From an uncultured Bacteroidales bacterium (GTDB lineage Bacteria; Bacteroidota; Bacteroidia; Bacteroidales; VadinHA17): DNA of 64,000 bases. The stretch lies in contig CAWFKI010000005.1 of NCBI GenBank assembly GCA_963816345.1, positions 1,695,572 through 1,759,571 on the forward strand. The letters are read 5' to 3'. A program made the position numbers and the translations under genes. Positions 25,275 to 63,936 of the stretch are shown here, in pieces (within the stretch, counting starts at the first letter, position 1; each line of letters starts with the position of its first letter). A model generated the notes under the pieces. The model saw only the letters and a program-made list of their open reading frames with translations, did not search any database and had not been told where the DNA came from.

Positions 25275-25338
25275 GGGCTTCGGGCTTCATTTTCAATATT
25301 CAGTTGGCAGTTGGCAAAAAGCAGTTGGCAAAATTGGC
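25275..25338 (+). repeat. heptamer arrays GGGCTTC x2 and GTTGGCA x3 (+ partial)
   Basis: GGGCTTCGGGCTTC at 25275-25288. GTTGGCAGTTGGCAaaaagcaGTTGGCAaaattggc at 25303-25338. Confidence 0.9.
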
Positions 25339-25356
25339 TTTAAGAAGTTTTTTTTA

Positions 25357-25584
25357 AACCTTATTTGTATCTTCAAACCTTAGTAGAAAAAATCATATTT
25401 AAAAGAGTACAACCTTATTAGCTTATTAATAATACCAACCCGAATATCATAAGATACTTACATATAGATGAATATGATTCATTTATTAAATTTTACCAAA
25501 AAACAATAAAACCAAAAATAAGGTAATAAGGTTTGAAGATATTTTTTGTCATTTTCTACTAAGGTCAGGGAAGAAAATAAGGTT
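25357..25584. repeat. AT-rich block with AACCTTATT motif copies and nested inverted repeats
   Basis: AACCTTATT occurs at 25357 and 25411. Its complement AATAAGGTT occurs at 25517 (8/9), 25525 and 25576. ACCTTAGTAGAAAA (25377-25390) is the exact complement of 25552-25565. ATCTTCAAACC (25369-25379) is the complement of 25530-25540. Confidence 0.85.
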
Positions 25585-25635
25585 TTTTCGACCCTGGCAA
25601 AACACCAGTGTAACTCTGTGGTAATCATCTTCTCT

Positions 25636-25677
25636 CTTCGGTCTTCGGTCTCCGGTCTTCGGTCTTCAGGCTTCACG
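25636..25677 (+). repeat. heptamer array CTTCGGT x6 (degenerate)
   Basis: CTTCGGT CTTCGGT CTCCGGT CTTCGGT CTTCAGG CTTCACG, exact 7-bp period. Confidence 0.9.
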
Positions 25678-25703
25678 ATCACAGTTATCTGACAGACACG
25701 GCA

Positions 25704-26843
25704 CTAGGACAACCTGTTCTTATAATCGGTATAGCCGAATTCCCTGATCAATCTGAATTCGCCCTCAGTTGTCCATATGCCAATAGAAGGATGATGGACC
25801 CCGTTGAAGGTGGTTGTTTTTACCATCGTGTAATGGATCATGTCGAGGAATATTATTCTGTCTCCCGGTTTGAGAGGCTTTTCGAACGACCAGTCACCCA
25901 TTACATCGCCGGAGAGACATGAGTTCCCCCCTATTCTGTATGCAGGTTTTCCGGGAACAGGATCAGAACCTCCTATAATTCTGGGTTTGTAAGGCATCTC
26001 CAGGCAGTCAGGCATATGAGCAGTAAAAGAGACATCAAGAATTGCAGTTTTAATACCCTGATTTTCGACTATGTCTTCAACGGTGGCTACCAACTCCCCG
26101 GTCTCCCATGCAAATGCACTTCCCGGTTCAAGAATGACCTGAAGTCCTGTCCTTTTACGGAAGCTTTTCAGGAGTTTAATAAGATGCTCCGTATCGTAAT
26201 TTTTGCCTGTTATCAGATGCCCGCCTCCCATATTGATCCATTTCAGAAAGGGGAAAAACCTTCCGAATTTCGCCTCCACGATCTCCAGTACTTTTTCCAG
26301 GGCGTAAGAGTCTGATTCAAACAGGACATGAAAATGCAGGCCTTCAATTCCCGGAGGCAGACCTCCTTTAAGATCATCTGCAACTATTCCAAGCCTGGAA
26401 CCTGGCGAGCAGGGATTGTACAATCCGTTGCTGACCTCCGAAAACTCAGGATTGATACGTAAACCCGGGGAAACTTTTCCTGCATATCGCTGCAATTCAC
26501 CGGAATACTTATTGTACTGGCTCAATGAGTTAAATGTAATATGCGAACTGAAGTTCAGAAGGGAATAGAAGTCGCGCTCCTTAATAACGGGTGAATATGT
26601 ATGGGCATATCCATGTACCTCTTCGAAGCAAAGGCGGGCCTCATCTACCGAACTGGCAGCGGCACCCGAGATATATTCCCTCAGGATCGGGAATACTCCC
26701 CACATTGCAAAACCCTTGAATGCAAGAATTATCTCTGCACCGGATTCCTTCGAAACATGCTTTATCAGTGACAGATTTTTCCTGAATCTCTCCTCCTCCA
26801 TCACATAGCACGGGGAAGGCAATATGCTGTAATCAACAGGCAA
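25704..26843 (-). CDS. nspC: carboxynorspermidine/carboxyspermidine decarboxylase
   Basis: 379 aa. PSPCYVMEEERFRKNL start and a PLP-decarboxylase fold (INMGGGH...). It is paired with a saccharopine-dehydrogenase-family gene immediately upstream. Confidence 0.88.
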   Translation of the reverse strand: MPVDYSILPSPCYVMEEERFRKNLSLIKHVSKESGAEIILAFKGFAMWGVFPILREYISGAAASSVDEARLCFEEVHGYAHTYSPVIKERDFYSLLNFSSHITFNSLSQYNKYSGELQRYAGKVSPGLRINPEFSEVSNGLYNPCSPGSRLGIVADDLKGGLPPGIEGLHFHVLFESDSYALEKVLEIVEAKFGRFFPFLKWINMGGGHLITGKNYDTEHLIKLLKSFRKRTGLQVILEPGSAFAWETGELVATVEDIVENQGIKTAILDVSFTAHMPDCLEMPYKPRIIGGSDPVPGKPAYRIGGNSCLSGDVMGDWSFEKPLKPGDRIIFLDMIHYTMVKTTTFNGVHHPSIGIWTTEGEFRLIREFGYTDYKNRLS

Positions 26844-26884
26844 CTCTTTTAATATTATGGGGTGTCAAAATATTCTGCATCCTG

Positions 26885-30489: not shown

Positions 30490-30612
30490 AATCTTCTTTA
30501 AACATTGAGTAACACTGAATATTATGGAATTATACTGCTTCCTCTGTGGATTTACACCGTGTCACTCTGTGAAACTCAGTGGTTAATTGGCTTTGTTCTC
30601 AGATATCTCATT

Positions 30613-31653: not shown

Positions 31654-31697
31654 TCAACTTACATTTAACTTTCCGCTTTTTATTTTATTAACCCGCG

Positions 31698-31754
31698 TGC
31701 CCTTTGCCTTTTTGCCAACTGCCCTTTGCCTTCTGCCATCTGCCCTCTGCCATC
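31698..31754 (+). repeat. heptamer array TGCCNNN x8
   Basis: TGCC starts at 31698, 705, 713, 720, 727, 734, 741 and 748 (7-bp period with one 8-bp step). The other strand reads ...GGCAgagGGCAgatGGCAgaaGGCAaag... Confidence 0.9.
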
Positions 31755-31759
31755 TTCCC

Positions 31760-32872: not shown

Positions 32873-33043
32873 AACCGGGTTAAAATTATGCGTAAAAATA
32901 GTAATTATGGCGGATAAATTTTACCGGCATACTATCAGCCTTGACCTTCTCTCATGAAAAATAGTGAATGTGATTGAATTAATTAATCGCCCGGGACTGG
33001 TTCGCACCTTTTCCGGGTTGCCCTTGCGCCGCTAAAGAACTTT

Positions 33044-33077
33044 ACCGATTACCGATTATTTGTCCCTAAGTCCCTAA
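33044..33077 (+). repeat. two short doublets: ACCGATT x2 and GTCCCTAA x2
   Basis: ACCGATTACCGATT at 33044-33057. GTCCCTAAGTCCCTAA at 33062-33077. Confidence 0.85.
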
Positions 33078-33103
33078 TTCTCATAGTCTCTTTATTCTAC
33101 ACT

Positions 33104-33180
33104 CTGTGCTCTGTGCTCTGTGCCCTGTGCTCTGTGCCCTGTGCTCCGTGCTCTGTGTTCCGTGCTCTGTGTTCTGCGCC
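33104..33180 (+). repeat. heptamer array CTGTGCT-type x11
   Basis: Eleven exact-period heptamers: ctgtgct ctgtgct ctgtgcc ctgtgct ctgtgcc ctgtgct ccgtgct ctgtgtt ccgtgct ctgtgtt ctgcgcc. Three more units lie at 33233-33253. Confidence 0.95.
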
Positions 33181-33277
33181 CTTCCCTTAAACCCACCCCT
33201 GGCCCCTCCAGAGAGGGGAATCTGAAGAAGCTCTGTGCTCCGTGCCTTTGCTCTCACGGGACGGGATCCAGCTGAAG

Positions 33278-35200
33278 TTACCTGATTCTGATAAAAGCCA
33301 TTTTGCCTTCATCCGAGCGGGAGATCTTCTCAAAAAAATTTACAAAATCAGGATATTCTGCTGCAGGATAATTACCCTTGAATAGTTTGAATGTCCTGAT
33401 ATAGCTTACACCTTTATTACCGGATATTACTTCAGATGAATAATCTCCGAATTTTGTTGTAATTGATATTTTTTCAGGAAGCAGGTCCATTTTAAATCCG
33501 GCCGGCATTTTGAATATTACAGTATCAATTTCATTATATGGTCTCCTGATGCAGATCTCAGATTTCCTCTCCCTGGTCATGTAAGGCGGCTTGTTAACCC
33601 TGGTCATTAAGTTAGGCTTTATAATGATCTTATTTCCCGTAATTACACCATAGTTAATCAGCTTTAAGTTCAAATCTTCTCTGACAGAGGGAATGAGGCT
33701 TTTATCCTCCCTGAATGAAAGACTGACAAGATTATAACTGGGGATTGAAATACCGGATTGAACGAATTTTCTCCTGTCAGTTTCGTCCTTGTGCAGGATC
33801 ATAAATTCCTTATCATAAAGTATCCCTTTATAACTGGTCACCACATTGGAGGTTGCATTTCCGTCAGGGCTAAGCTCGACAACAGCTTTGCGGAGCTGCA
33901 AATTATCAGATATGGAATATTTCCTTGTTGAAACAAGCGTTCCTCCTGTTTCATCAGTAAGCAGGGCTTTACGGTCATCAGTAAAAGACCCTAAATAACC
34001 GAATGGGATCAGCTGACTGGTGCACTCAAGCCATATAGTGTCATTCTTAACCGGAACGCACAGAATAGCATGATTAAACTGGTTTGACGGGAAATCAGCT
34101 CTGATTGCCGGAGCGGATTCTCCGGCTCTTACAAGGGTATAATAGCTTTTGATTCCTGCAACATCGAGAAGGGATTTCATATAATTTGTAAGTGCCTTGC
34201 AGTCGCCATAGGAAACATGATCAACTTTTTCAGCCTCAATTGTCTGCCAGCCTCCGATTCCTATCGACACATTAACGTACCTCACTTTATTCTGAAAGTA
34301 ATTGTAGAGTACCCTGATTTTCTCATTGTCAGAATCAATACCGGAAACCATGCTTTTAATTTTTGCATTTGTTTCCGCATCCAGAACATTCCTTCCCTTT
34401 CCAAGCAGATTAATCCATGATCCGAAACTCTTCCACGATTCAATGTTTCCCTTATATCCCTCAACTTCGAAATCACCGGGAGCAGAATAAACAACCGGAG
34501 TATAATCTTCCCAGGAGGTACTGAATGGTTCCTTTTTTATAGCCGGCATATTCTTATATGCCCAGCTATACTTTGTTTTTCCCTCTGCTTCCGTAATCCT
34601 GCAACTGTCAATTGCATTTTTTTCCAGGTATCTGAATTTGAATCCTTTGGGTGTCAATACTGTAAGTGATGCCTTTTCGACAGAGATATTGTAATCATTA
34701 TAAACCATCCAGTCGGGGTAATAAAAGAGAGCGTCATAGGAGATCTCATACGTATACTCGACAGTGAAAGGCAGGGTACGGTATTTGGGATCAATAAATT
34801 TAACCCTGATATCTGCATACAGGGAAGATCCATCATTGGCAGAATAATCCTCCACCCTTACGTTCGCTTTGTTTTTTACTGGAACGCCGTATTGATCATA
34901 GAGATCTGCCTTTATTTTTCTTACAGAAAGAAATTTATCATAAAACTCCGTCAGTACCGATTTTTCGATGCCCTTTTCATTCAGGATTGTAATTGCGTAG
35001 GTAACTCTCTGAACAACAGTATTTTTATCTGAAATTTCAAATACTGTTTCACTGTTCCGGACAACTGCACTTGCATTTGAAATAAGCTCCTTTGGGATAT
35101 CCGCCACCTTATACTTTACATCCGCGGCATTGGCTGAAATGACAACCAGGTGAATTATAAGGAATGTCAAAAGACCAGCCTTTAGTGCAGTTTTCATCAT
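33278..35200 (-). CDS. DUF3857-type N-domain + transglutaminase-like core lipoprotein/secreted protein (catalytic residues intact)
   Basis: 640 aa with a signal peptide. Transglutaminase-like core YGDCKALTNYMKSLLDVAGI ... FNHAILCV ... WLECT. Confidence 0.85.
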   Translation of the reverse strand: MMKTALKAGLLTFLIIHLVVISANAADVKYKVADIPKELISNASAVVRNSETVFEISDKNTVVQRVTYAITILNEKGIEKSVLTEFYDKFLSVRKIKADLYDQYGVPVKNKANVRVEDYSANDGSSLYADIRVKFIDPKYRTLPFTVEYTYEISYDALFYYPDWMVYNDYNISVEKASLTVLTPKGFKFRYLEKNAIDSCRITEAEGKTKYSWAYKNMPAIKKEPFSTSWEDYTPVVYSAPGDFEVEGYKGNIESWKSFGSWINLLGKGRNVLDAETNAKIKSMVSGIDSDNEKIRVLYNYFQNKVRYVNVSIGIGGWQTIEAEKVDHVSYGDCKALTNYMKSLLDVAGIKSYYTLVRAGESAPAIRADFPSNQFNHAILCVPVKNDTIWLECTSQLIPFGYLGSFTDDRKALLTDETGGTLVSTRKYSISDNLQLRKAVVELSPDGNATSNVVTSYKGILYDKEFMILHKDETDRRKFVQSGISIPSYNLVSLSFREDKSLIPSVREDLNLKLINYGVITGNKIIIKPNLMTRVNKPPYMTRERKSEICIRRPYNEIDTVIFKMPAGFKMDLLPEKISITTKFGDYSSEVISGNKGVSYIRTFKLFKGNYPAAEYPDFVNFFEKISRSDEGKMAFIRIR

Positions 35201-35215
35201 TATATAATTTTGAGT

Positions 35216-37069
35216 TTAAATCTTTTTAATGATTATAGGTTCCGAATGCTTTTTGATAACCTCATTATAAAATTCCTTCAGGTTCTTATATTCGGTGAAA
35301 AGAAACATGGTTTTGTTGATTGAAAAAACTGATTTGACGTTAAGGGTATTCCCTGATCTGGCAGTAATATAAGTCAGGGATGCAGCATTATCAGGCATTT
35401 TAAGGCTGAGCGGAGCCGGCAACTGAACAACCTCATAGTTTTCAGGAATTTCAATACTGCTTGTTATTGTCTCTTCAATCCTGTATCCGTAGTCGACCGG
35501 ATATTTTCTTTCGTCTGCCCGCAAGGGGTTCTCTTTCATCTGATGATAGAACATCGGAAAAATGTAAATCTCATTCCCGTTTTCAGTAAGCTGATCATTT
35601 ATCGTTACATTATAATCTTCAATCACAGGCAGGTAAATACTATCTATATTACTAATGCCTGACCCGGAAATCCTAAGACCCTGCTTATCTTTTTTAAAAT
35701 CATCGAGATACTCATCAACACCGCTGAATGTCTGGTATTTCTTTCTGAAGTCAAGAGCTGAATAATCAACTTTTTTCAGAATAAGCTTACCCTCCAGGGT
35801 GTTGTTGTCAAGAAGCCTGAGATTGTATGTTGTAAATTTTTTATCCTTGTAATCAGTGCTAATAGTAAGCGGTGTGCTGTTGGTTTCATCCATTAATATA
35901 CCGGTATAGTTCAGGCATCTGAACGGGATCAGGTAATAGGGCATATGCGGTTCGGTGGCGTCGAGTAAAAAGGATTTGCCACCGGTTTTCACCTGTACAA
36001 TTATGTAGTTAAGCCTTTCGATACTTGGAGAAGAAGGTGAGATGAATCCGTGACTCCTGGTGCTCATAATTACCGGAGTTGCATCAAATCCAAGCTTCTT
36101 CAGCAACTGAAGAAGGATCAGATTGACGTCGGCAGAATTTCCAATCTTCATTCTGTATGCAAATCCCAGGGTACCTGTGGAGGCAAAAAGAGATTCCTTC
36201 TCATTCCACTTTACAACGGATTGTATGGCTTCAAAGGCTTTTTTCATCATTTCCTCCCTGCCGGGGTTTAAATCTTCAATTGACTTAGCAATCTTATTAA
36301 GATATGCAGAACTGCTAAGAGATAATCCAAAGGAGGGAACCTCCATCAGTAATCTGCTTAATTCCTCCCATGATGTTGTAACGGGGTGATAGTCAATATT
36401 AAGAATATCAAACTCCAGTTTCGTCAGGTAGTTCTCCTTTGAGGTCATAAAGGGTTCCACCTTAAAGGAAGGCATATTTTTTGCAACCCATCTTACAGGT
36501 GTTGAAATATAGAGGGGTTGATAACCAAAAAAATTATATTTAAACTTTACTTCCTTCGTATCCTCCATCTCCAGTTCGCTGTACTTTACCGGTATAAGGT
36601 CCTGAAACCGCCAGACCGGCATGATACCCTTAAAGGAAAACTCCAGATCAATGACAGAACCTACCTTAACATTCGGCATGGCAATACGCACGATGCAAAT
36701 ATTTTCGGTGATCTTATCCTTGAATATGGATTCGTTTTTCAGATAGTCTTTGATGATTTTACCGTTTTCAAGGTTAAAAGTAATGCCTTTGATCTGAGTG
36801 TCAATATTGTACGGATAGCCGCTGTTTGCCCAGTCATATCCCTCTTTTTTCAGAATTTTAATTCTCTGGATCCGGGTAAAAAGAAAGGAGGTGGAATTGA
36901 AATGTCCATAATCGCACAGTATCACTGCGGAAGCTGATGTATCTTCCGGATAGGTATCCATCCTGAGTTCCTCGATAGTGACATCACCAAATTTAACCGG
37001 AGCTTTCTGTCCTGATGTCAGTGAATAACAAATGAACAGAGCTGACAGAATAAGAATTGCTTTATTCAT
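35216..37069 (-). CDS. DUF3857/DUF3858-type transglutaminase-like paralogue lacking the Cys/His residues
   Basis: 617 aa with a signal peptide. The equivalent core reads GNSADVNLILLQLLKKLGF ... LNYIIVQV ... LLDAT (Cys->Ser and His->Tyr in my by-eye alignment). Confidence 0.85.
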   Translation of the reverse strand: MNKAILILSALFICYSLTSGQKAPVKFGDVTIEELRMDTYPEDTSASAVILCDYGHFNSTSFLFTRIQRIKILKKEGYDWANSGYPYNIDTQIKGITFNLENGKIIKDYLKNESIFKDKITENICIVRIAMPNVKVGSVIDLEFSFKGIMPVWRFQDLIPVKYSELEMEDTKEVKFKYNFFGYQPLYISTPVRWVAKNMPSFKVEPFMTSKENYLTKLEFDILNIDYHPVTTSWEELSRLLMEVPSFGLSLSSSAYLNKIAKSIEDLNPGREEMMKKAFEAIQSVVKWNEKESLFASTGTLGFAYRMKIGNSADVNLILLQLLKKLGFDATPVIMSTRSHGFISPSSPSIERLNYIIVQVKTGGKSFLLDATEPHMPYYLIPFRCLNYTGILMDETNSTPLTISTDYKDKKFTTYNLRLLDNNTLEGKLILKKVDYSALDFRKKYQTFSGVDEYLDDFKKDKQGLRISGSGISNIDSIYLPVIEDYNVTINDQLTENGNEIYIFPMFYHQMKENPLRADERKYPVDYGYRIEETITSSIEIPENYEVVQLPAPLSLKMPDNAASLTYITARSGNTLNVKSVFSINKTMFLFTEYKNLKEFYNEVIKKHSEPIIIKKI

Positions 37070-37268
37070 ATTATTAACATTAAAATATGGAAAACAAAAT
37101 GAAATATATCAACTTTCAAATTCAGTCAGTATATCCTGTTCCGATATTCACAGTATTCTCTCACACAGTATTTATCCTTTATCAGAAGACTGATTCAAAC
37201 ATAGCATAATTTATTGATATTACAAACTTACTGCCGGTTATATTTATCTGCAGGTTTCAGGTTGAAAT

Positions 37269-37295
37269 GGCGTAATGGCAAAACGGCAAAACGGC
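37269..37295 (+). repeat. octamer array GGCGTAAT GGCAAAAC GGCAAAAC GGC
   Basis: Exact 8-bp period, read directly from the sequence. Confidence 0.9.
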
Positions 37296-37346
37296 TCCAC
37301 CGCATCGCTTGTCACGCCTGCCCCATCTCCCCGCCGGACCGACCCC

Positions 37347-37404
37347 CCGCTCTACGCTCTATGCTCTACGCTCTCTTCTCCCCATCTCCCCTTCCCCGCT
37401 CCCC
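37347..37404 (+). repeat. heptamer array (CCGCTCT ACGCTCT ATGCTCT ACGCTCT ...) running into four C4 tracts
   Basis: Eight 7-bp units. The last 25 nt are CCCCatctCCCCttCCCCgctCCCC (37380-37404). Confidence 0.9.
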
Positions 37405-37461
37405 GACAGTGCCACCCCCGGGAAATGTTCAAATAATTTCAGGGTGAAATGCAATTTATGT

Positions 37462-37469
37462 TACTTTTG
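37462..37469 (+). promoter_or_regulatory. -7 box (TACTTTTG) upstream of the GH3-beta-lactamase gene
   Basis: TACTTTTG matches TAnnTTTG, 38 nt upstream of the ATG at 37507. Confidence 0.4.
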
Positions 37470-37506
37470 AATCTATTCCATTAATGATTCTTTATTATAT
37501 AAGGAT

Positions 37507-40518: not shown

Positions 40519-42415
40519 ATGAAACAATTAAAACCGGTTATAATATTATTGCTGGCCCTGACTGCTGAATATTCCTGTCTGGGGCGTTTTTGTTACCACA
40601 CCTGAGGTCTCTGAGGATAAAGCAGCAGTCAAAGCTTTGGTGTCTGTCGAAAACAGATCAGGATCAGAATATGAATTCACATTAAGAAATACGATTCTTT
40701 CCCCTGAAAAAGAGGAAGTTGCGGTGTCTGAAAAGATTGAAAAGCTTGGAGCGGGAGAGAAAAAGGAGGTTGAACAATTATTTGATGTCCACAAGCCTAA
40801 GTTATGGTCAGATGAATCACCATCTCTCTACTCACTTAAATCCGAGTTAATATCAGGAGGGAAAATCATTGACAGTGAAGTGACGACCTTTGGCATACGA
40901 AGTATCTCATTCACCCCTGAAAATGGATTTCTGATGAACGGGAAGCATGTTATTCTGAAGGGGGCTTGCATCCATCACGATAATGGTCCTCTTGGATCAG
41001 TGGCTTTTGACAGGGCTGACCAGCGTAAGATCGGTATTTTAAAAGCCGCCGGCTTTAACGCAATCCGTACCAGTCATAATCCCCCATCACAGGGGTTCCT
41101 CGATGCCTGCGACCGCGCGGGAATTCTTGTCATGGACGAAGCGTTTGATATGTGGGAGAAGCCAAAGCGAGCCGATGATTACCATCTGTTTTTCGACGAA
41201 TGGCATAAGAGAGATCTGCAATCAATGATATATCGTGACCGCAATCATCCTTGTGTAATTCTCTGGAGCATAGGAAATGAGATATCTGAACGGGCCGACC
41301 CTGCAGGATTAAAAATAGCCATAGAACTGAAGGGAATTATAAAGGATCTGGATACCACAAGACCCGTTACGGAAGCAATCTGCGAATTCTGGGAGACTAA
41401 AGGACGTCCATGGGACAGATTCGGCCCCGGCATTTGCCTTGTTTGATGTCTGCAGTTACAACTACGTATATCGGAGAGTATGAAAAAGACCATGCGCAGA
41501 TATCCTGAGAGGGTCATTGCGGGAACAGAATCATTTGCACTCGATATCTATCGATAACTGGAAGATGGACAACTGAAAAATCATATGTTACCGGCGATTT
41601 TGTATGGACAGGGATGGATTACCTTGGGGAGGCAGGGATCGGACAGGCAATGACCGATTCCACCACAATGTGCTGGCCATGGATCAATTCCAATTGCGGG
41701 GATATAGACCTGATCGGCTACAAAAAACCTCAGGCCTTTTACCGCGATGTGGTCTGGGACCGCAGTAAGCTTGAAATGGCCGTTGAAGAAATAGCGCCTG
41801 AAGGTAAAGCTGGCTCATAAGAGGCGTGGGGCTGGCCGCGCGAGTACCCGGGCTGGACCTGGCCCGGCAACGAGGGTAAACATGATGAAAGTGAATGTTT
41901 ATACCAAATGTGATGAGGTAAAACTGGAACTGAACGGAAAACTGATTGCAACACAAAGATCAGCACCGGGTTCAAGATTTACATATAAGTTCAATGTACC
42001 CTATGAAGCCGGGGAACTTAAAGCAATTGCATTCTCCTCCGGTAAAGAGCAGGCGGTAAAATCACTGATAACAACCGGACCTGTGGAAATGATTAAAATC
42101 ATTCCTGACCGTCAGGTAATTACATCAGACAGGAACGATCTTGCCTACCTTACTGTCGAACTGTCGGATGCAGGCGGGAACAGGGTCCCTTATGCTGAAT
42201 CAGGGATAAAGTTTCATGTGGCAGGAGATGCTGTGCTTGCAGCAGTGGATAATGGCAATCCCAGGGATCCGAAAAGCTTTCAGGCTGACAGCTGCAATGC
42301 CTGGCACGGGAGGTGCCTGGTAATATTGCGTCCCACCGGGAGAAGCGGCAAAGTGACACTGACTGCAGTTGCCGCCGGATTGCCCGTTGAAAAGTGCATT
42401 ATTGATATTAAGTAG
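40519..42415 (+). pseudogene. GH2 beta-galactosidase-like relic (N-terminal domain deleted, at least 3 frameshifts)
   Basis: The signal peptide MKQLKPVIILLLALTA runs, after a stop, straight into the middle Ig-like domain (VSVENRSGSEYEF...). The TIM-barrel motifs NAIRTSHNPPSQ and WSIGNEISE are present. Later parts (FVWTGMDYLGEAGIG, MKVNVYTKCDEVKLELNG) lie in other frames. Confidence 0.8.
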
Positions 42416-42464: not shown

Positions 42465-44375
42465 TTACCGGATCAGAGCTATCTGCCTGTTATCCTCATT
42501 ATTAACCTTTTCGAAAAAATCCACAAAGGCTTCATACATTTCAACAGGGAAATTTCCTTTAAGTAATTTGAACCCTCTTATATAAGTTAACTTACTGTCA
42601 GTATAATAATATTCAGAATCATACTCTCCAAATGGCGTTTTCAGAGAAAATTTTCCTGGTTTATTATCAGATCTGAAGCGGACCGGTAAAAAATATGTAA
42701 CGGTATCATATTCACAAAATGATCGCCTGATACAAACGGGGGCTTTTCTCTGCACCGATCTTAACGGGATATCGCTTAACCTGGTAAAAAGGTTTGGTCT
42801 TAAGATCAGACCTCTTCCGGTAATTGTTGCATAGGCCGGGGATCGATATTTTTAATTCTTCAGACAGAGAGGGAACAATTGATTTATCCTGGCTATAATT
42901 AAAGCTTGCCAGATTGCCGCCGGCGATCTTTATTGTGCTGTATATGAATCTTTTTCTATCTTCATCATCCATCCTCAGGACCCTGCTCCTTTCATCATAT
43001 TTAATTCCTGTATAACTTGTATTGACAGACATTGCGGCGCTTCCATCATCATTCATTTTCACTGTTATATTTCTGATCTGTTTGTTATCCCCGGCTGAAT
43101 AGGCAGTAGTATTTACAATTTTTCCACCTGATTCACTGATGATTAACGCTTTCCTGTCATCCGTAAAGGATCCTAAAAATCCAAACGGAATCTGCTGATC
43201 TGTGCATTCAAGCCATATTGTATCATTATTGACCGGGACACAGACGATTGCATGATTAAACTGATTTGAGGGAAATCCATCCCTGAGACCCGGTGCATTT
43301 TCCCCTGCCCGTATTATTGTATAATAAGAAGTAATGCCAGCTATGTCAAGCAAAGCCTTCATGTAATTCGCCAAGGCCTTGCAATCTCCGTAAGAAACCC
43401 TGTCAACAGTCTCAGCATCTATAGGTTGCCACCCTCCCAGCCCTTCCGTTATACTTACATATCTGACCTTGTTCTGAAGATAATTATAAAGCAGTTTCAC
43501 TTTTTCATAATCATCCCCGGCCTCACTGGTAATGCGATTTTACAGTTTCCCTTGTCTTTTGACCAAGCAGGGTTTTGTTTTCACCAAGTTTTTTAATCCA
43601 TAATCCCAGGTTTGACCAACTCTCACAATTTCCCCTGATACCTCCCATTTCAAAATCATCAGGCGCAACAAATACTGCAGGCGAATATTCTTCAGGATCA
43701 GGGCTGTAGAGTTCCTTTTTTAATGCCGGCAACCCTGAAATTGCCCATTCATACAGAATTTTCGATGGTTTATTATATGTATTACAATGGTCTTTAATGT
43801 TTTGCTCGAGGTATCTGAGCCTGAATCCTTCGGGAGATATGATCCTGAAGGTTGAATTCTCAACGGCTACATTATAATCTTCATAAAGTATCCAGTTGGG
43901 ATAGTTGAAAAGTCCGTCATAGCTTATTTCATATGTGTATTCCACTGTAAATGGAGTAGTTGGTATATCCGGGATCATATACTTTCAACCTGTTGTCACT
44001 ATATAAAGAGTAGCCCGAAAGTGCAGCAACATCGGTTGCATTGGTATTAAGGCCGGTTCTGATCTGTTTGCCATTACCGTCGTAAAGCGAAGCCTTAATT
44101 TTCCGAACTGACGAAAATTTATCGTAGCCCTTTACCAACACTGAATTGCTGATCCCGTTCCTGTTCAGTATTGTTATGGCATAAGTAACTTTTATGACAG
44201 CTTTGTCGTAATCAGCAATCTCAAAGACAATATCCTGCTTTCTGATAACTGCCTTTGAATCAACGAGAAGAGCCGAGGGAATATCGGAAATAGCATATTT
44301 AGGATTATCTGCCCTGGAAGTTGCAGGATATAGCAGGAGGCAAAATAAAACCGCGCGTATGGAATCTGCTTGCAT
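42465..44375 (-). pseudogene. decayed paralogue of 33278..35200 (DUF3857 + transglutaminase-like), 3 frameshifts
   Basis: Four consecutive ORF fragments (43929-44375, 43523-43978, 42712-43500, 42465-42755) are colinear with the 640-aa protein and highly similar to it (YGDCKALANYM, FNHAIVCV, WLECTD). Shifts lie near 43960, 43510 and 42730. Confidence 0.85.
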
Positions 44376-46487: not shown

Positions 46488-46494
46488 AGCGTAG

Positions 46495-46578
46495 TGCCCA
46501 GAACAAGACTCGAACTTGCACACCCTTGCGAGCACCAGCCCCTCAAGCTGGCGTGTCTACCAATTTCACCATCTGGGC
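46495..46578 (-). tRNA. tRNA-Leu (anticodon GAG)
   Basis: GCCCAGATGGTGAAATTGGTAGACACGCCAGCTTGAGGGGCTGG...long variable arm...GCAAGTTCGAGTCTTGTTCTGGGCA. Cloverleaf folded by hand with anticodon loop TTGAGGG. No encoded CCA. Confidence 0.9.
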
Positions 46579-46589
46579 GGATGGGGTTG

Positions 46590-46673
46590 TGCCCAGAACA
46601 GGACTCGAACCTGCACATCATTACTGACACTAGTCCCTGAAACTAGCGCGTCTACCAATTTCGCCATCTGGGC
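46590..46673 (-). tRNA. tRNA-Leu (anticodon CAG)
   Basis: GCCCAGATGGCGAAATTGGTAGACGCGCTAGTTTCAGGGACTAG...GCAGGTTCGAGTCCTGTTCTGGGCA. Anticodon loop TTCAGGG, long variable arm. Confidence 0.9.
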
Positions 46674-48481: not shown

Positions 48482-48520
48482 GGCACAATGGCGTAACGGC
48501 GCAATGGCGTAACGGCGAAT
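48482..48520 (+). repeat. octamer array GGCACAAT GGCGTAAC GGCGCAAT GGCGTAAC GGCGAAT
   Basis: Exact 8-bp period. Same unit class as 37269-37295. Confidence 0.9.
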
Positions 48521-48563
48521 TACACCTGGTCTGTTACAAATCGGCGCCAGCGGGGCAATGCCT

Positions 48564-48605
48564 GCGCCCCGTGCCCTGTGCCCCGTGCTCTCTGCCCCGT
48601 GCTCT
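48564..48605 (+). repeat. heptamer array GCGCCCC GTGCCCT GTGCCCC GTGCTCT CTGCCCC GTGCTCT
   Basis: Exact 7-bp period. It abuts the stop codon of the permease gene. Confidence 0.9.
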
Positions 48606-50198
48606 CTATTCCGGAGTGTTTTGTCTGATCTTGCTATGCTTAACACTGTAAAAGAAGTAGATTACAAATCCTATCGCCATCCATATAATAAGCCTTAACC
48701 AGGTATCCAGTGGCAGTGCTGCCATCTGAATGAAGCAGATCGAGGCGCCAAGTATGGGAACAAGGGGTACCATTGGGGTTTTAAAGGGACGTTCAATATC
48801 GGGTTTTGATTTTCTTAAAACTATTATGCTGATGCAGACTATTATAAACGCCAGCAGGGTACCAATTGATACCAACTCGCCAAGGATTCTTATCGGAAGC
48901 ACACCTGCAATTATCATGGCAACACTGCCTGTTATAATTGTACTTACATAGGGAGTTTTGAATTTCGGATGTACCTTTGAAAAAACAGGGGGCAACAAGC
49001 CATCCTTTGACATTGAGTAAAATATCCTCGGCTGGCCCAGAAGCATTACGAGAATTACCGAACTTAGTCCTGCTATAGCAGCAATTTTTACAATGGGTCT
49101 GAGCCAGAACATCCCCTTACCCATAGCATCAACACCAACTGCCACAGGATCAGCCACATTTAAAGTAGTATAGCTCACAATTCCTGTAAGTACGATAGCA
49201 ACAAGAATGTATAAAACTGTTGAGATCCCAAGCGATCCGAGAATTCCTACAGGCATATCGCGCTGAGGATTTTTGGCCTCCTGGGCTGCTGTTGATACTG
49301 CATCGAATCCGATATATGCAAAAAATATCACTCCGGCCCCTCTCAGTACACCGCTGATACCATATTTTCCGAACTCATGGCTGTATGCCTGAAGCCAACC
49401 CCAGAATGAGCCATATGCAGATATGGGAGTATTTTCAACTTTGTTGGCGGGGATAAACGGGTGCCAGTTAGCTGACTTGACAAACATGAATCCCAGAGCA
49501 ATAAAGAGTATTATTACCGACACCTTCGTAATTACCATTATGTTGTTGAAATTTGCCGATTCCCTGATACCAATCACAAGAAGGGTCGACAAAAGCGCCA
49601 CAATGAACATGGCAGGAATATTAAGGACACAGGTAACATGAGTTAATGAATCAACCTGTAATCCTGATGCCGAGAGGGTCTGCACAAGGGTATCCGAAAG
49701 CGGCTTCCATCCCATATCCGGGACGTTTACAAGGACAGTCCCCACGGCTCCCGTGAACTGCGGCGGAATGAAAATGTGCAGGTCCTTCAGAAAGCTGACA
49801 ACATATCCCGACCACCCTACAGCAACAGTTGAGGCTGCAAAAAGATATTCAAGTATCAGGTCCCAGCCGATAATCCATGCAAGAAATTCACCAAGGGTGG
49901 CATACGAATAGGTATAGGCGCTTCCTGCAATAGGGATCATAGATGCAAACTCTGCATAGCATAATCCGGCAAAGCCACAGGCCAGACCTGAGATAATAAA
50001 AGATAAGACAATCCCAGGACCGGCGTACTGTGCAGCCGCCTGTCCGGTAAGTACAAAAATGCCGGCACCGATTATCGCTCCGATACCTAACGTTGTAAGA
50101 TTCAGCGCTGTCAGTGATCTTTTTAAACCTCCTGACTCCTGCGATTCACTGAATAATTGCGGAAGTGGTTTTGTTAGAAATAGCCGGCTTTTTGACAT
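48606..50198 (-). CDS. APC-superfamily amino-acid permease (cationic amino-acid transporter-like)
   Basis: 530 aa, about 12-14 TM. LTTLGIGAIIGAGIFVLTG is typical of the APC family. Confidence 0.9.
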   Translation of the reverse strand: MSKSRLFLTKPLPQLFSESQESGGLKRSLTALNLTTLGIGAIIGAGIFVLTGQAAAQYAGPGIVLSFIISGLACGFAGLCYAEFASMIPIAGSAYTYSYATLGEFLAWIIGWDLILEYLFAASTVAVGWSGYVVSFLKDLHIFIPPQFTGAVGTVLVNVPDMGWKPLSDTLVQTLSASGLQVDSLTHVTCVLNIPAMFIVALLSTLLVIGIRESANFNNIMVITKVSVIILFIALGFMFVKSANWHPFIPANKVENTPISAYGSFWGWLQAYSHEFGKYGISGVLRGAGVIFFAYIGFDAVSTAAQEAKNPQRDMPVGILGSLGISTVLYILVAIVLTGIVSYTTLNVADPVAVGVDAMGKGMFWLRPIVKIAAIAGLSSVILVMLLGQPRIFYSMSKDGLLPPVFSKVHPKFKTPYVSTIITGSVAMIIAGVLPIRILGELVSIGTLLAFIIVCISIIVLRKSKPDIERPFKTPMVPLVPILGASICFIQMAALPLDTWLRLIIWMAIGFVIYFFYSVKHSKIRQNTPE

Positions 50199-59450: not shown

Positions 59451-59640
59451 TTCGCGCCAAGCGCCAATGACTATTTAATGACGGCCGCAGGCCAAATGAC
59501 GCGCGAAGCGCCAATGACTATTTAATGACGGCCGCAGGCCAAATGACGCGCGAAGCGCCAATGACCATTAATGACGGCCGCAGGCCAAATGACGCGCGAA
59601 GCGCCAATGACTATTTAATGACGGCCGCAGTCCAAATGAC
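59451..59640 (+). repeat. 47-bp tandem repeat, about 4 copies, carrying 12 AATGAC motifs
   Basis: The unit gcgccAATGACtatttAATGACggccgcaggccaAATGACgcgcgaa starts at 59461, 59508, 59555 (46 bp) and 59601 (truncated). Confidence 0.95.
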
Positions 59641-59643
59641 CCT

Positions 59644-59889
59644 TCATCCGATGGAAAGCGAGTACAGGATTTTTATAGCCTCTTCCCTGTCCTTACCACA
59701 AAACTCCTGTTCCGGTTTAAAGCCGGTACATACTTCAGGCTTGGATGTCATATTGTAGATTGAGCATCTGTAATTGTCAAGCAGATGAATGCACCTCACT
59801 CCCGCCGGTTTGCCATCCGGCATTCCGGGGAGTGGCGAGGAGATAGAGAGGGCTATGCAACAGGCACCGCAACCGGGACGACATTCCAT
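59644..59889 (-). CDS. YkgJ-family (UPF0153) cysteine-cluster protein
   Basis: ORF 59644..59985. I start at MECRPGCGACCIALSISSP. The upstream 32 codons of the ORF are a translation of a short tandem array. Confidence 0.78.
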   Translation of the reverse strand: MECRPGCGACCIALSISSPLPGMPDGKPAGVRCIHLLDNYRCSIYNMTSKPEVCTGFKPEQEFCGKDREEAIKILYSLSIG

Positions 59890-59891
59890 AT

Positions 59892-59925
59892 TATGAGATT
59901 TATGAGATGTGAGATGTGAGTGTGA
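59892..59925 (+). repeat. short tandem array TGAGAT/GTGAGAT-type x4
   Basis: tatgagat ttatgagat gtgagat gtgagt gtga, immediately upstream of the ykgJ-like start. Confidence 0.8.
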
Positions 59926-60052
59926 AAAATATGATGCAAAACTACAAAAATAATATGACACTAAACCCTGGCTCAGATACAACATTCATAACAGGAAGTA
60001 TCTCTTATTGCTCCTGTGCTATATTGTTACTACATTTACGAAAACGCCAGAC

Positions 60053-60736
60053 ATGAGGATTGATATAATCACAGTTCTGCCCGAATTGCTTGAAAGCCCT
60101 TTAAACTATTCTATTGTAAAAAGGGCCAGGGAAAAGAAAATAGTCGAGATAAACGTGATAAATCTGCGTGATTTTACCACCGATAAATATAAAACTGTGG
60201 ATGATTATGCTTTCGGAGGTGGTGCAGGAATGGTTATGATGATCGAACCTGTGTACAAGGCTATCGAAAAGCTTAAAAGCGAAAGAGAATATGATGAGAT
60301 CATTTATACTTCACCTGATGGCATAAGGTTCGACCAGAAAACGGCCAACAGGCTTTCAATGAAGAATAATCTGCTGATCCTTGCCGGTCATTATAAGGGA
60401 GTGGACCAGAGGATACGCGACAATCTGGTAACCATGGAAATATCGATCGGAGATTATGTTCTCTCCGGAGGTGAAATACCGGCTGCTGTGATTACCGATG
60501 CTATTGTAAGACTTCTTCCCGGAGCTATGTCAGATGAACAATCCGCGCTGTCGGACTCATTCCAGGATGATCTCCTTGCTCCTCCCGTATACACCCGACC
60601 GTCAGATTTCAGGGGATGGAAGGTGCCGGATATCCTCTTATCGGGCAATACTGGTGAAATAGAAAAATGGAGACATGAACAATCAATTGAGAGAACAAGT
60701 AAACTCAGACCAGACCTGTTAAGTGATGAAAATTAA
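60053..60736 (+). CDS. trmD: tRNA (guanine37-N1)-methyltransferase
   Basis: ORF 60008..60736. I start at [13 protein letters not shown]. Motifs: [13 protein letters not shown] and GHYKGVDQR. Confidence 0.95.
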
Positions 60737-63700
60737 GGCTTCATTATTAAGATTGACAACAGCTTTTTCAGTTGCCATAATATTTATTTCATGTGCACGT
60801 ACTGTTCCCCATGATATCGTAAGAGAAGGGTTTCTGAATCCTCCCGACTCGGCAAGACCCGGCGTATACTGGTATTTCATGGATGGGAATCTCGACCGGG
60901 AGGCAATGACGAAAGATCTTGAGTCTATGAAGAAGGCAGGAATCGGTTGGGTTCTGTTCCTTGAAGTCAATGTTGGTATTCCCCGGGGAAAGGTCGATTT
61001 TCTGACTGATGAATGGCAGGATCTTTTCGCCCATGCCGTAAGGGAATCGGAACGGCTTGGGATCAGGTTAATACTGGGATCCGGTCCGGGATGGGCCGGA
61101 AGTGGCGGACCATGGGTCACTCCTGCCCGATCGATGGTTCACCTTGTGGCCGCAGATACTACAGTAACCGGTCCGGCTTCATTCGATGCAGTACTTCCTG
61201 TACCACAGCCAAAAAGACCGTTTTTCGGAGAGGAAAGCCTTACCCCGGCGCTCAGGCAACTGCGCAACAACTGGTATGAAGATGTAGTTGTGCTTGCCTT
61301 TCCTTCACCAGCAGCACCGGAAAAGATAAATGATACTGATGAGAAGGCGCTTTATTACCGTGCTCCCTACACCTCCCAGCCCGGAGTGGTGCCATATATA
61401 TCAACAGCTTACTCCTCATCCCGGGCAAAAGGCACACCAATTGATCAGAAGAGAATAATTGACCTGACAGGAAGAACCGGAGCCGACGGCAGGCTAAACT
61501 GGAATATACCTGAAGGCAAATGGACAATTATGAGGTTCGGCAAGCGTAATAACGGGGCGGTTACCCGGCCGGCTCCGGCTCCCGGTCTGGGGTTTGAGTG
61601 TGATAAGTTCGACACTGCCTCCTTTGATTCCCATTACAACGCATACGTCGGAAAGCTTATAAAAAAGGTCAACCCTGCAAAAACCAGGAGAGCCGGCGGC
61701 TGGACAATGATTCATATTGACAGCTGGGAGATGGGAGCCCAGAACTGGAGCCCCGGTTTCAGGGAACAATTCATAAAGCGCCGCGGCTATGATCCACTGC
61801 CTTTTCTGCCGGTTTATACCGGGCTGGCTGTTAACAGTGCCGCTAATCAGTGAAAGGTTCCTTTGGGATGTGCGTCAGACTTCAAACGAACTTATTGCCG
61901 AAAACCATGCCGGACAGTTTAAAAAGCTCGGCAGAAGAAACGGATTCCGCCTTTCAATCGAACCTTATGATATGAATCCCGCTGCAGATCTCGATCTTGG
62001 AGCAGTAGCTGATGTCCCGATGTGCGAATTCTGGAGTGACGGATTTGGTTTTAATTCATCATTCAGCTGCATTGAGGCAACCTCAATTGCTCATGTGTCA
62101 GGGCTCCCTGTTGTGGCTGCAGAGGCATTCACCGCTGATTCTCCCGAGGCCTGGAAAAAATATCCGGGTAATATGAAAAACCAGGGTGACTGGGCCTTCT
62201 GCATGGGGATCAACAGGCTGATTTATCACACCTTTGTCCATAAAGCCCTTCCGGATAAATACCGGCCGGGAATGACAATGGGACCTTACGGGGTGCACTG
62301 GGACAGGGGTCAGACGTGGTGGTCAATGGCTGCCGCATATCACAAATATATTTCAAGATGCCAGTTTGTCCTTTCGCAGGGAAAAGCGGTTGCAGATATT
62401 CTTTATCTTACTCCCGAGGGTGCACCCCAGGTATTTCTGCCGCCAGAATCGGCACTCTCAGGTACTCCGGTAATGCCGGACAAGGGAGGTTACTCATTCG
62501 ATGGCTGTTCTCCCTCCTTTTTAATTAAAAACGCAGCTGTAAAGGATCACCGGATCGTCTTTTCCGGCGGCGCTTCCTACGATGTAATTGTACTGCCTCT
62601 GATCCAGACAATGACACCTGAACTTATCACCACGATCGGAGAACTGATAAGCGCCGGAGCAACTGTTATAGGGAATCCTCCCGTGAGGTCTCCTTCCCTT
62701 GCAAACTTCCCAGAATGTGATTCAATTGTCAAATCATTGGCTGACAATATCTGGGGTTCAGGAACCATTCCGGAAAACCTCACTGTCAGACAATACGGAA
62801 CGGGGAAAATTTTATGGGGAGAGAATTTGTCTGTCAGAAAGCCAGGGGTTCTGCAAAAACAGGATTCACCCGGGCTTTATCCCGACTATCAGGTTGCTGT
62901 TGACATTTTGAGAGACAAGGGTTTAAATCCCGATTTCAGCTCTTCAGGAAATATTCGTTATACTCACCGGAGTTTTCCGGACAGGGATATATATTTTATA
63001 TCAAACAAATCAGGGGAGCCGGTAAAGGACACCTGCCTGTTCCGCGAAGGAACACTGAATGCTGAATTGTGGAACCCTGTGAGCGGTGAAACAAGCAGGG
63101 TAGAATGTTATACGAATGCTGACGGCAGAGTGGCATTAACTGTCATGCTGGATGCTTATCAGAGCTATTTTGTTGTATTTTCCCATAATCAAAAGAGAGA
63201 TAATTTAAAAAATCCTGAAACGGAAAGATTTGCTGAAAAACAAACTCTTTTCACACTGCAGGGATCCTGGAACGTTTCGTTCGATACTTCATGGGGAGGT
63301 CCGGCCCATATTGTTTTCAGTGACCTTACAGACTGGTCGGCCCGGGCCGAAGAGGGAATAAAATACTATTCCGGCAGTGCCACCTATACAAAAACATTTG
63401 ATATTCCGGATGGCACGAAGATAAAAGGAGATGCTGCCTGCTTTCTTGATCTCGGTATTGTCAGGAACCTTGCAGAGGTCAGCCTGAACGGGCATGATCT
63501 GGGCATTTTATGGACGGCTCCCTGGCAGGTGAGAGTAACAGGTATCATTAAGGAGAAAGACAACCGGCTCGAAGTTAAAGTATCCAATTTATGGATCAAC
63601 AGGCTGATAGGTGATGAATCACTGCCATGGGATGGAGTAAAGGACGGAAAGTGGCCCGATTGGCTGCTGAATGGAACAAAACGCAACAGCGGGCGATATA

Positions 63701-63786
63701 CCTTCACAACACACCGTTTTTATAAGAAGGATGATCCCCTTTCAGAATCAGGTCTTATAGGTCCCGTAACTCTGACAACTGAATGA
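60723..63786 (+). pseudogene. large secreted glycosyl-hydrolase-like lipoprotein (about 1020 aa), one frameshift
   Basis: ORFs 60723-61853 and 61789-63786 are colinear parts of one protein. It has lipobox FISCA, N-terminal FLNPPDSARPGVYWYFMDGN...MKKAGIG, and a C-terminal galactose-binding-like LNGHDLGILWTAPWQVRV. The frame changes near 61845. I cannot assign the family by eye. Confidence 0.7.
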
Positions 63787-63800
63787 CAATTGAATGGTTA

Positions 63801-63936
63801 TTGGCGCTTCGCGCGTCATTCGCTTCGCTGTCATTGGTGGTCATTAGCGCTGCGCGCGTCATTAATGGTCATTTGTGGTCATTTGTGGTCATTTTTGGTC
63901 ATTTGCGCTGTGCGCGTCATTCGCTTCGCTGTCATT
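63801..63936 (+). repeat. GTCATT array (10 motifs), inverted relative to 59451..59640
   Basis: ttggcgcttcgcgcgtcatt (63801-63820) is the exact reverse complement of 59495-59514. A 25-bp direct repeat gcgcgtcattcgcttcgctgtcatt occurs at 63811 and 63912. GGTCATTTGT-type 10-mers x4 lie at 63867-63905. Confidence 0.92.

Follow-up and report, generated by a model that had tools for sequence, protein, structure and literature searches.

Tandem arrays of the window and of related loci

The 64,000-nucleotide stretch of DNA analysed here (the window) belongs to an uncultured Bacteroidales bacterium of the VadinHA17 lineage (assembly GCA_963816345.1, contig CAWFKI010000005.1, positions 1,695,572 to 1,759,571), and carries between its genes a series of tandem arrays with units of 7 or 8 bp, which are the subject of this study. 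According to Pfam scans it is an ordinary stretch of a Bacteroidota chromosome, with genes for a short-chain dehydrogenase, a diaminopimelate (DAP)-decarboxylase-like protein, saccharopine dehydrogenase, TrkH, an NTP-transferase, an APH/amgK-like kinase, DUF5009, two DUF3857 proteins, a fusion of glycoside hydrolase family 3 (GH3) and beta-lactamase, aspartate kinase, an amino-acid permease, ThrRS, IF3, L20, DapB, an amidohydrolase, a CxxCxxCC protein, TrmD and a GH106 protein.

The window arrays were identified with Tandem Repeats Finder (TRF) and by direct reading of the sequence (Table 1). Period-7 or period-8 arrays are indeed present at every repeat site of the first-pass annotation, which had been made from the letters alone, with minor corrections only. 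The GTTGGCA array described there as threefold exists (25301-25333) but has two tandem units, the third following only after a degenerate unit, and a stretch near 37.3 kb read as NNGCTCT x8 was over-counted, consisting in fact of CGCTCTA x3.9 and CCCCATCTCCCC x2.

Table 1. Arrays and interleaved repeats of the window, with selected counterparts in related loci (L numbers).
Feature	Position	Strand	Context
GGGCTTC x2 and GTTGGCA-type 7-mer array	25275-25338	+	First base 6 nt past short-chain dehydrogenase stop (25269); sense strand of that gene G-rich
GGGCTTC x2	25276-25289		Part of the preceding; TRF and reading
CTTCGGT, about 6 units, last two degenerate	25635-25677	-	ACCGAAG in gene sense; 27 nt past stop (25704) of ornithine (Orn)/DAP-decarboxylase-like gene, right side of convergent spacer
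TGCCNNN x8, 7-mer units	31698-31755	-	NNNGGCA in mRNA sense; 4 nt past DUF5009 stop (31760), 44 nt before APH/amgK-like start
Array cluster	33042-33253	-	3' of DUF3857 stop (33278); TRF and reading
ACCGATT x2.4	33042-33058		Within DUF3857-downstream cluster
GTCCCTAA x2	33062-33077		Within DUF3857-downstream cluster
CTCTGTG x10.7	33102-33176	-	GCACAGA in sense
Hairpin element CCCCTCTCTGGAGGGGCCAGGGGTGGG, 27 nt	33192-33218	-	CCCCTCC-N3-GGAGGGG-N3-GGGGTGGG, usually then TT; splits the arrays of the cluster
CTCTGTG-type, about x3	33230-33253	-	
GGCRNAAY x3	37269-37295		Left side of divergent spacer, top strand G-rich
CGCTCTA x3.9	37348-37374		Right side of divergent spacer, top strand C-rich
CCCCATCTCCCC x2	within 37269-37404		Right side of divergent spacer, top strand C-rich
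GGCRYAAY 8-mer x4.5	48482-48517	+	21 nt past aspartate kinase stop (48460)
REP-like palindrome GTTACAAATCGGCGCCAGC	48532-48551	+	Between the two arrays of aspartate kinase/permease spacer
GYGCYCY 7-mer x6	48561-48607	-	AGAGCAC/GGGGCAC in sense; overlaps amino-acid permease stop (48606-48608)
47-bp unit x4	59453-59640	+	Whole convergent spacer, amidohydrolase stop (59450) to ykgJ-like stop (59644)
TGAGAT(G)-type array	59891-59925	-	CACATCT in ykgJ-like sense; adjoins probable true ykgJ-like start 59889
Composite: GTCATTTGTG 10-mer x4.8 and three inverted copies of GCGCGAAGCGCC-AATGAC unit	63773-63936	-	Overlaps/follows GH106 stop (63786)
Longest array seen, TCTCTTCG x47, 378 bp	L038 15912-16289		Makes spurious 190-aa open reading frame
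Hairpins with period-7 arrays as both arms	L020 9115-9179; L022 12929-12993; L063 12938-13015; L013 7978-8052		
Other CCCCTCC-type hairpin copies	L029 8081-8678 (four); L071 8174-8335; L067; L008		
Other REP-like copies	L055 16156-16282; L087 4975-5219; L032 11887-11949; L014 1855-1936; L084-L086		

For comparison, 80 related loci (1.40 Mb) were obtained by scanning species-representative genomes with the GH3 protein. All come from metagenome-assembled genomes (MAGs) of uncultured Bacteroidales/Bacteroidota from fens, lakes, soils and digesters, with 49-78% protein identity. Together with the window they make up a data set of 1.47 Mb, in which genes were called from open reading frames (ORFs) and codon usage, 89% of the DNA being coding and 11% intergenic. 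TRF found 341 arrays in the 80 loci (131 of period 7, 43 of period 8 and 44 of period 14). When arrays of at least 3 copies were counted over the 1.47 Mb, period 7 was the dominant unit length with 169 arrays, followed by period 8 with 45, and every other period gave at most 26 (period 6, 26; period 9, 17). The arrays exceed chance expectation: dinucleotide shuffles confined to each spacer of the window predict 0.08 period-7 arrays and 0 period-8 arrays of at least 3 copies, against 6 and 1 found.

The restriction to intergenic DNA noted at first reading extends to the whole data set, since 157 of the 169 period-7 and 41 of the 45 period-8 arrays are intergenic (198/214, about 93%) as against 11% of the DNA. 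Within the window no array lies inside an intact coding sequence. Fourteen of the 16 nominally coding arrays sit at ORF ends (start over-extension or C-terminal overlap) or form spurious ORFs themselves, and only 2 of the 214 are well inside a called gene. It is likewise true that the first 25 kb of the window are free of arrays, but this is not meaningful, as a mere three or so 3'-flank spacers reach 60 bp in that part; the arrays are confined to the last 39 kb because 3' spacers happen to lie there.

The 131 period-7 arrays fall into 72 classes when rotation and strand are taken into account. The unit families of the window (GTTGGCA, CTCTGTG, GATTACC, CTTCGGT and GGCGTAAC) recur in genomes only 50-78% identical, and so does AAAGACA, the commonest family. 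The arrays are therefore, as first proposed, a dispersed and non-random family, and one that recurs across related Bacteroidales loci. They are not artefacts of assembly, because the same sites bear arrays in independent assemblies of the same species (the window, L081/L087, L083/L084, L085 and L086) and arrays are present in Microflora Danica contigs of several Mb too.

Placement and strand polarity

Among spacers of at least 60 bp, to which the counts by spacer class were restricted, arrays occupy 40 of 109 convergent spacers (37%), 72 of 278 co-directional spacers (26%) and 6 of 192 divergent spacers (3%). The difference between the divergent class and the spacers that hold a gene 3' end (112/387) is highly significant (Fisher p = 1.4e-15). 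Within co-directional spacers, the upstream stop is the closer gene end for 90 arrays and the next start for 35 (p = 9e-7). Of these 125 arrays, about 45 start no more than 7 nt from the end of the stop codon, with modal starts around -2 to +2 and a peak at -2 to -1; negative offsets are to be expected of purine-rich arrays, since each of the three stop codons ends in two purines. Approximately 9% of genes (92/1002) have an array within 15 nt of the stop, and no preference in stop-codon choice was found in genes with an array near the stop. A minority of arrays lie near starts, 17 of them within 20 nt of a start codon. The ideas that arrays are translationally inert, or provide stops in three frames, gave no clear signal when the start- and stop-codon content of arrays was considered, the mononucleotide-shuffle control being a poor match for repeats.

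Comparison of orthologues leads to the same placement. Arrays directly follow the DUF5009 and APH stops in most species of the nearer clade, and the 3' flanks of DUF5009, APH and GH3 orthologues bear arrays in most species; in more distant relatives those junctions have an overlapping stop and start (TGAaATG) instead of arrays. Some arrays of L038, L046 and L077 occupy the entire spacer from stop to ATG, and in L070 the GH3 stop is followed first by an array and then by a canonical hairpin-plus-T terminator. This 3' rule holds for 7 of the 9 repeat regions of the window.

The first-pass annotation had suggested that slippage at sites upstream of genes could change promoter spacing. Arrays acting as contingency loci, in which changes of copy number alter promoter spacing or 5' leader length and so switch downstream genes on or off, would agree with the copy-number variation between strains described below, and with the minority of arrays that are beside starts (the 17 just mentioned, and 59891-59925 in the window) or in a divergent spacer (37269-37404). 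We nevertheless regard this role as very unlikely. Arrays are strongly depleted from promoter-only, divergent spacers (3% vs 26-37% of spacers with a gene 3' end), and co-directional arrays more often lie closer to the stop than to the next start (90 vs 35). Phase-variable contingency loci are characterised by a repeat between the promoter hexamers or in the 5' portion of a coding sequence. Here the flanking genes are ordinary metabolic ones (aspartate kinase, short-chain dehydrogenase, permease, amidohydrolase and also glycoside hydrolases), and not surface, antigen or restriction-modification genes. Two sites that had been placed upstream of the amgK-like and DUF5009 genes really adjoin the stop of the gene before, at distances of 4 nt and 25 nt, and the arrays of the divergent spacer 37070-37506 are all upstream of the conserved promoter-like region of GH3 and not inside it. 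A function as promoter-spacing switches is thus not supported. As to the start-adjacent site, the longest ORF of the ykgJ-like CxxCxxCC gene (start 59985) over-extends through the TGAGATG array, and the likely start is the ATG at 59889 (MECRPGCGACC).

Array composition depends on strand. The 90 arrays that lie no more than 15 nt from a stop contain, on the sense strand of the gene, A 0.34, G 0.31, C 0.18 and T 0.16, compared to A 0.33, T 0.29, G 0.19 and C 0.18 in background spacer DNA. Purines prevail in 74 of the 89 informative arrays among them and not in the other 15 (p = 1.5e-10), and G exceeds C in 70 and C exceeds G in 19. Relative to the nearest stop, arrays in convergent spacers are G>C in 46 cases and C>G in 12, and replication direction is not the cause of this polarity because both orientations occur within single spacers. 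Tabulation of 250 arrays gave top-strand G>C in the left 40% of the spacer (60 vs 26) and top-strand C>G in the right 40% (71 vs 26), irrespective of spacer class; even in divergent spacers 10 of 11 informative arrays comply. Near starts (within 25 nt, sense of that gene) the skew is C>G in 21 arrays vs 11 and A>T in 25 vs 8, and 59891-59925 is one start-proximal, C>G instance. In each of the four spacer classes, and at the start as at the end of genes, the G-rich strand therefore reads outward from the nearest gene. The A/T skew follows mRNA sense in co-directional spacers, the sense strand being A-rich and T-poor. The two unit classes distinguished at first, one centred on GGCA/GGCG and one on GTGC..CT, are accordingly one compositional class viewed from opposite strands.

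Two mechanisms are the main candidates to explain the G/C polarity, and each fits some features and conflicts with others. In the first, the arrays are selected transcription insulators, whose inward-reading strand, being C-rich, G-poor, unstructured and periodic, would constitute a Rho-loading (Rho utilization, rut) site. Upstream read-through and downstream antisense transcription would be stopped at the gene border, while the outgoing mRNA would be G-rich and Rho-resistant. A rut site has much C and little G, and synthetic repeats of pyrimidines are able to serve as Rho terminators. The outward orientation of the G-rich strand at both gene ends in the four spacer classes, the 46 vs 12 bias of convergent spacers, which is not a replication-strand effect, and the predicted lack of structure of co-directional arrays (see below) all agree with insulation. 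However, arrays no farther than 25 nt from an ATG have C>G when read in the direction of that very gene and leave no room for a promoter, and would therefore terminate their own gene's mRNA. In addition, presence, length and unit type of arrays vary freely between strains, which argues against a strongly selected device. On balance we consider Rho-based insulation unlikely.

In the second candidate the polarity is mutational: G- or purine-rich RNA past the stop would form R-loops, the displaced strand would promote slippage, and arrays that are G-rich in sense would expand from the stop onward. RNA:DNA hybrids rich in purines have particular stability, and in eukaryotes repeat instability is driven by R-loops. 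Array starts are indeed most frequent at the stop codon, where ribosome cover ends; stop-proximal arrays are G/A-rich in sense; and divergent spacers, which are depleted of arrays, would be largely untranscribed if promoters sit close to genes. Against this, on one and the same transcript the G/C skew is reversed close to start codons, and arrays of divergent spacers obey the position rule although they have no gene 3' end. Expansion driven by R-loops seems to us improbable.

Turnover between strains and interleaved elements

Same-species contigs were recruited through protein searches and one DNA pattern, and a 30-mer metagenome scan gave one extra strain only. Strain comparisons rest on L081/L087 and L083-L086. 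L081 and L087 are one contig of the Joint Genome Institute (JGI), whose DUF5009 and aspartate kinase are each 98% identical to those of the window. L083 and L084 derive from one NCBI metagenome assembly; L083 shows about 94.6% nucleotide identity, and the aspartate kinase of L084-L086 is 99% identical. As had been anticipated, copy number differs between strains, and at two sites, in strains 94-99% identical, so do the number and even the type of unit. The array past the DUF5009 stop has 8 units in the window, 6 in L081 and about 12 in L083, between conserved flanks, and the spacer upstream of DUF5009 contains wholly different array clusters in the three. The L081 homologue of the divergent spacer 37269-37404 has different, longer arrays. 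In the aspartate kinase/permease spacer, the GYGCYCY array counts 6 units in the window, L084 and L086 and 7 in L085, and the array on the aspartate kinase side is a GGTATTC-type 7-mer in L084-L086 vs the GGCRYAAY 8-mer of the window. Alignments between strains obtained by BLAST break exactly at arrays.

These replacements bear on the possibility that the arrays, in the manner of iterons, are bound by a DNA- or RNA-binding protein that reads a short motif every 7-8 nt. Heptad-type binding is exemplified by omega-repressor heptads, ToxR TTTTGAT heptads and SARP heptamers. The strict periods of 7 and 8 and the recurrence of unit families in distant genomes would suit such sites, as would a modest enrichment of GGC (41 arrays vs 21 expected) and the presence of GRC in sense in 72 of 184 units vs 30 antisense. 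The diversity of units would not: with 131 period-7 arrays in 72 rotation and strand classes, no motif is common to even half of the arrays, and a search for a shared core gave weak enrichments (GGC, TAA). Moreover, the unit type at one site has been replaced outright between strains whose flanking proteins are 99% identical. Binding of this kind is highly improbable.

One larger difference between strains was observed. In L081 (9465-10000) DUF5009 and the GH3 gene are directly divergent, and in the window this array-rich spacer has the DUF3857 gene pair inside it (33278-37069), with GYGCYCT-type arrays on both sides of the insertion. Because the pair is array-flanked in the window and missing between DUF5009 and GH3 in L081, arrays may mark or promote rearrangement breakpoints. 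A recent duplication of DUF3857 pairs was rejected, the 33-37 kb pair being only distant paralogues of the 42.7-46.3 kb genes.

Predicted RNA structure differs between spacer classes. Co-directional array spacers are predicted to be unstructured (median z 0.0), and convergent ones strongly structured (median z -2.9, -0.31 kcal/mol per nt). A complementary partner array in the same spacer (duplex z < -2) was found in 20 of 36 convergent and 9 of 62 co-directional cases, and some hairpins have period-7 arrays as both arms (Table 1). A role between convergent genes, where the first-pass annotation had suggested insulators or binding arrays, is plausible; inverted array pairs there are often predicted to fold into long hairpins. 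For the RNA of the long CACAGAG array in the 33042-33253 cluster (minus strand), folding predicts less structure than for shuffles (z +1.8).

Two dispersed hairpin elements are interleaved with the arrays, in 12 and 19 copies in the data set and one copy each in the window, which invites comparison with the repetitive extragenic palindromes (REPs) and bacterial interspersed mosaic elements (BIMEs) discussed below. The CCCCTCC-type element (the window copy and 11 others) is placed between arrays in 3' or intercistronic spacers, usually in sense. The REP-like palindrome, GGCAC-CGATTACAAATCG-GCGCCAGC, has its 19 copies in 8 loci, often as inverted pairs forming long hairpins. The GCTGGCGC core of this palindrome is directly flanked in L081 and L083 by GATTACY and GGCGCAAY arrays, and these families may therefore derive from it. 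Neither the arrays nor the CCCCTCC-type element matched Rfam (Rfam 15), the sole matches being two tRNA-Leu genes.

Higher-order repeats (14, 16, 21, 47 and about 135-170 bp) also occur in spacers, and spacers combining arrays, palindromes and higher-order repeats resemble mosaic extragenic regions. The 47-bp unit of 59453-59640 has three AATGAC motifs besides a pair of small GC hairpins (GCGC-GAA-GCGC and GGCC-GCA-GGCC). In inverted and diverged form it recurs three times at 63797-63915, at the right end of the window, and it was not found in the 83 related loci searched. This 47-bp region and the 63773-63936 composite are higher-order members of the same extragenic repeat landscape. A mobile unit like a MITE (miniature inverted-repeat transposable element) was rejected, as the arrays of the composite sites 37269-37404 and 48482-48607 share unit types and no other sequence. 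Separately, a 230-nt AT-rich nested inverted repeat (25356-25585; fold z -4.8), single-copy in the window, lies between the two arrays of a convergent spacer; possible identities are a MITE-like insertion, a long terminator and a small RNA.

Other features of the window are more local. Three genes appear to be pseudogenes or to carry frameshifts: a GH2 gene in fragments (40637-42415), intact as an 824-aa gene in L081 and L082; a DUF3857 gene broken into three ORFs (42712-44375); and the GH106 gene, present as two overlapping ORFs (60723-63786). The two tRNA-Leu genes (46494-46673, minus strand) are adjacent, have anticodons GAG and CAG and are 83% identical to each other, and in many related species sequence matching a tRNA-Leu gene end directly follows the GH3 gene, past a bidirectional terminator. 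Finally, about 1.2 kb at 12072-13292 have no convincing gene; short ORFs overlap on both strands with strong A>T skew, and the segment has no Rfam match and no arrays.

Nature of the arrays and comparison with known repeats

The arrays are probably hypermutable long simple sequence repeats (SSRs) of 7 or 8 bp, generated by slippage in the 3' flanks of genes and in intercistronic DNA across a broad uncultured Bacteroidales clade, and in the best-supported view their place with respect to the flanking genes filters, or drives, their composition. Slipped-strand mispairing would create the arrays and drive their turnover, while selection on the transcript may let only certain compositions survive in each context, namely those that neither damage promoters, nor terminate transcription prematurely, nor mask the next start codon. 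Hairpin-forming pairs might contribute to 3'-end formation or mRNA stability. The GATTACC and GGCGCAAY families may have been seeded by the dispersed REP-like palindrome, which would give rise to BIME-like mosaic extragenic regions.

Several points weigh against such slippage-made repeats as a full account. Neutral slippage and tolerance alone do not predict the G/C polarity, or its flip between the stop and start sides, and the sharing of unit families by genomes 50-78% identical suggests that more than local slippage is involved, namely dispersal or selection. The 3' rule is broken by two sites of the window, 37269-37404 in a divergent spacer and 59891-59925 adjacent to a start. The window's own convergent spacers are not significantly structured when compared to shuffles, so that the hairpin-pair finding rests on the related loci, and in a crude scan canonical hairpin-plus-T terminators were no commoner near arrays than elsewhere. 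We infer both transcription of the arrays and slippage from position and from the differences between strains; the arrays that fill a stop-to-ATG spacer, or precede a terminator, are indirect signs that arrays may be part of transcripts. The gene calls are our own, with reliable stop codons and unreliable start codons.

A bolder reading would make the arrays a selected and evolvable system of transcription-unit boundaries, in which the inward strand is a Rho-loading platform and the outward strand is Rho-resistant, convergent modules pair as hairpins, and slippage tunes array length. We consider it unlikely. If true, the polarity rule shared with the heptamers of Xanthomonas and Nostoc would be a general mechanism that insulates bacterial genes.

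Taken as slippage-generated long SSRs, the arrays are of interest because heptamer arrays are the commonest bacterial long SSR and have neither an established function nor an established cause for their placement. This clade is a rich natural data set for the question, with dozens of unit families, arrays in all four spacer orientations and about 9% of genes concerned. Its richness separates gene orientation from replication direction, and reveals that the polarity rule of the Xanthomonas and Nostoc heptamers is independent of G-quadruplex potential. In practice, arrays generate spurious ORFs and break alignments between close strains, which is relevant to annotation and to strain-resolved binning of environmental Bacteroidales. 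They could also serve as multi-locus strain-typing markers.

The closest known counterparts are the heptamers GGGAATC of Xanthomonas and GGGGA(C/T)T of Nostoc, which are about 90% intergenic, mostly transcribed and under-represented between divergent ORFs (Rehm et al., 2015; PMC4692102). Most of them either lie no more than 50 bp from a stop codon, the sense strand being G-rich and the stop itself overlapped in some cases, or are located upstream of an ORF, the antisense strand then being the G-rich one. Tandem pairs in inverted orientation are also described, and length and sequence vary between close relatives at conserved positions; no function was assigned (Rehm et al., 2015). The Bacteroidales arrays follow the same positional and strand rules, and they too vary in length and sequence between close relatives at positions that are kept. 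However, in Xanthomonas and Nostoc one G-tract unit per genome dominates, four units are preferred and a G-quadruplex is plausible, whereas the Bacteroidales arrays comprise dozens of unit families, include 8-mers, mostly have no G tracts and show no preferred copy number. That they too are G-quadruplex-forming repeats, as was proposed for those heptamers, is extremely improbable in spite of the shared rules. Four GG tracts on one strand are found in 76 of 198 arrays but four G3 tracts in only 13 of 198; AAAGACA, the commonest family, has no G tract; and there is no preference for four units, copy numbers declining smoothly from 3 upward. A Nostoc preprint ascribes regulatory effects to heptamer repeats near promoters and start codons.

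More generally, heptanucleotides are the commonest long SSRs with units of 5-11 bp (LSSR5-11) in free-living bacteria, and polymerase slippage was proposed as their origin (Mrazek et al., 2007, the former as quoted in PMC4679880 and PMC4692102, the latter in PMC4679880). The Bacteroidales arrays have the features of this class: head-to-tail units of 5-11 bp in at least 3 copies, occurrence above chance, dominance of period 7 and an excess in non-coding DNA. As the class is presented in those two papers, heptamers are commonest there as here, and the hosts are alike in being non-pathogens with ordinary-sized genomes; the survey predates these uncultured Bacteroidales genomes.

The statement that no equivalent was described for Bacteroidota has to be corrected, since heptamer arrays have been reported in five Bacteroidetes. 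Direct TAACTGA repeats occur in Beggiatoaceae, in cyanobacteria and in those five, which include the Bacteroidales species Paludibacter propionicigenes (MacGregor, 2015; PMC4679880). These are also intergenic heptamer arrays, and other heptamer arrays were noted in the same spacers (PMC4679880). Unlike the Bacteroidales arrays, which are mostly beside stop codons, they consist of one unit located mostly a few nt upstream of start codons.

The short tandemly repeated repetitive (STRR) sequences of heterocystous cyanobacteria, to which the arrays had been likened, are an apt analogy, as they too are tandem heptamers scattered through non-coding DNA, each genome having several unit families. The units that define them are CCCCAGT, TTGGTCA and CAACAGT. 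The present host belongs to a different phylum, and no tandem units of STRR1-3, GGGAATC, GGGGAYT or TAACTGA were found in this data set. The enterobacterial REPs and BIMEs share with the arrays an extragenic, dispersed distribution at 3' ends or between operon genes, and not at promoters, and their mosaic of palindromes and short motifs may have a counterpart in the two hairpin elements interleaved with the arrays; they differ in being built of palindromes of about 35 bp, as opposed to tandem units of 7 or 8 bp.

Borg tandem repeats are described as fast-evolving and independently arising, with a coding strand enriched in A and depleted of T, and slippage was proposed for them (PMC9879509). 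The A-rich, T-poor coding-sense strand and the fast turnover are found again here. According to the same source, Borg repeats differ in having, in the examples given, units of about 18-21 nt, in lying about half inside ORFs, there with lengths divisible by three, and in belonging to archaeal extrachromosomal elements. The class of repeat and its rules of placement are already known from Xanthomonas and Nostoc, and what is new is a lineage with an unusually diverse repertoire of units.

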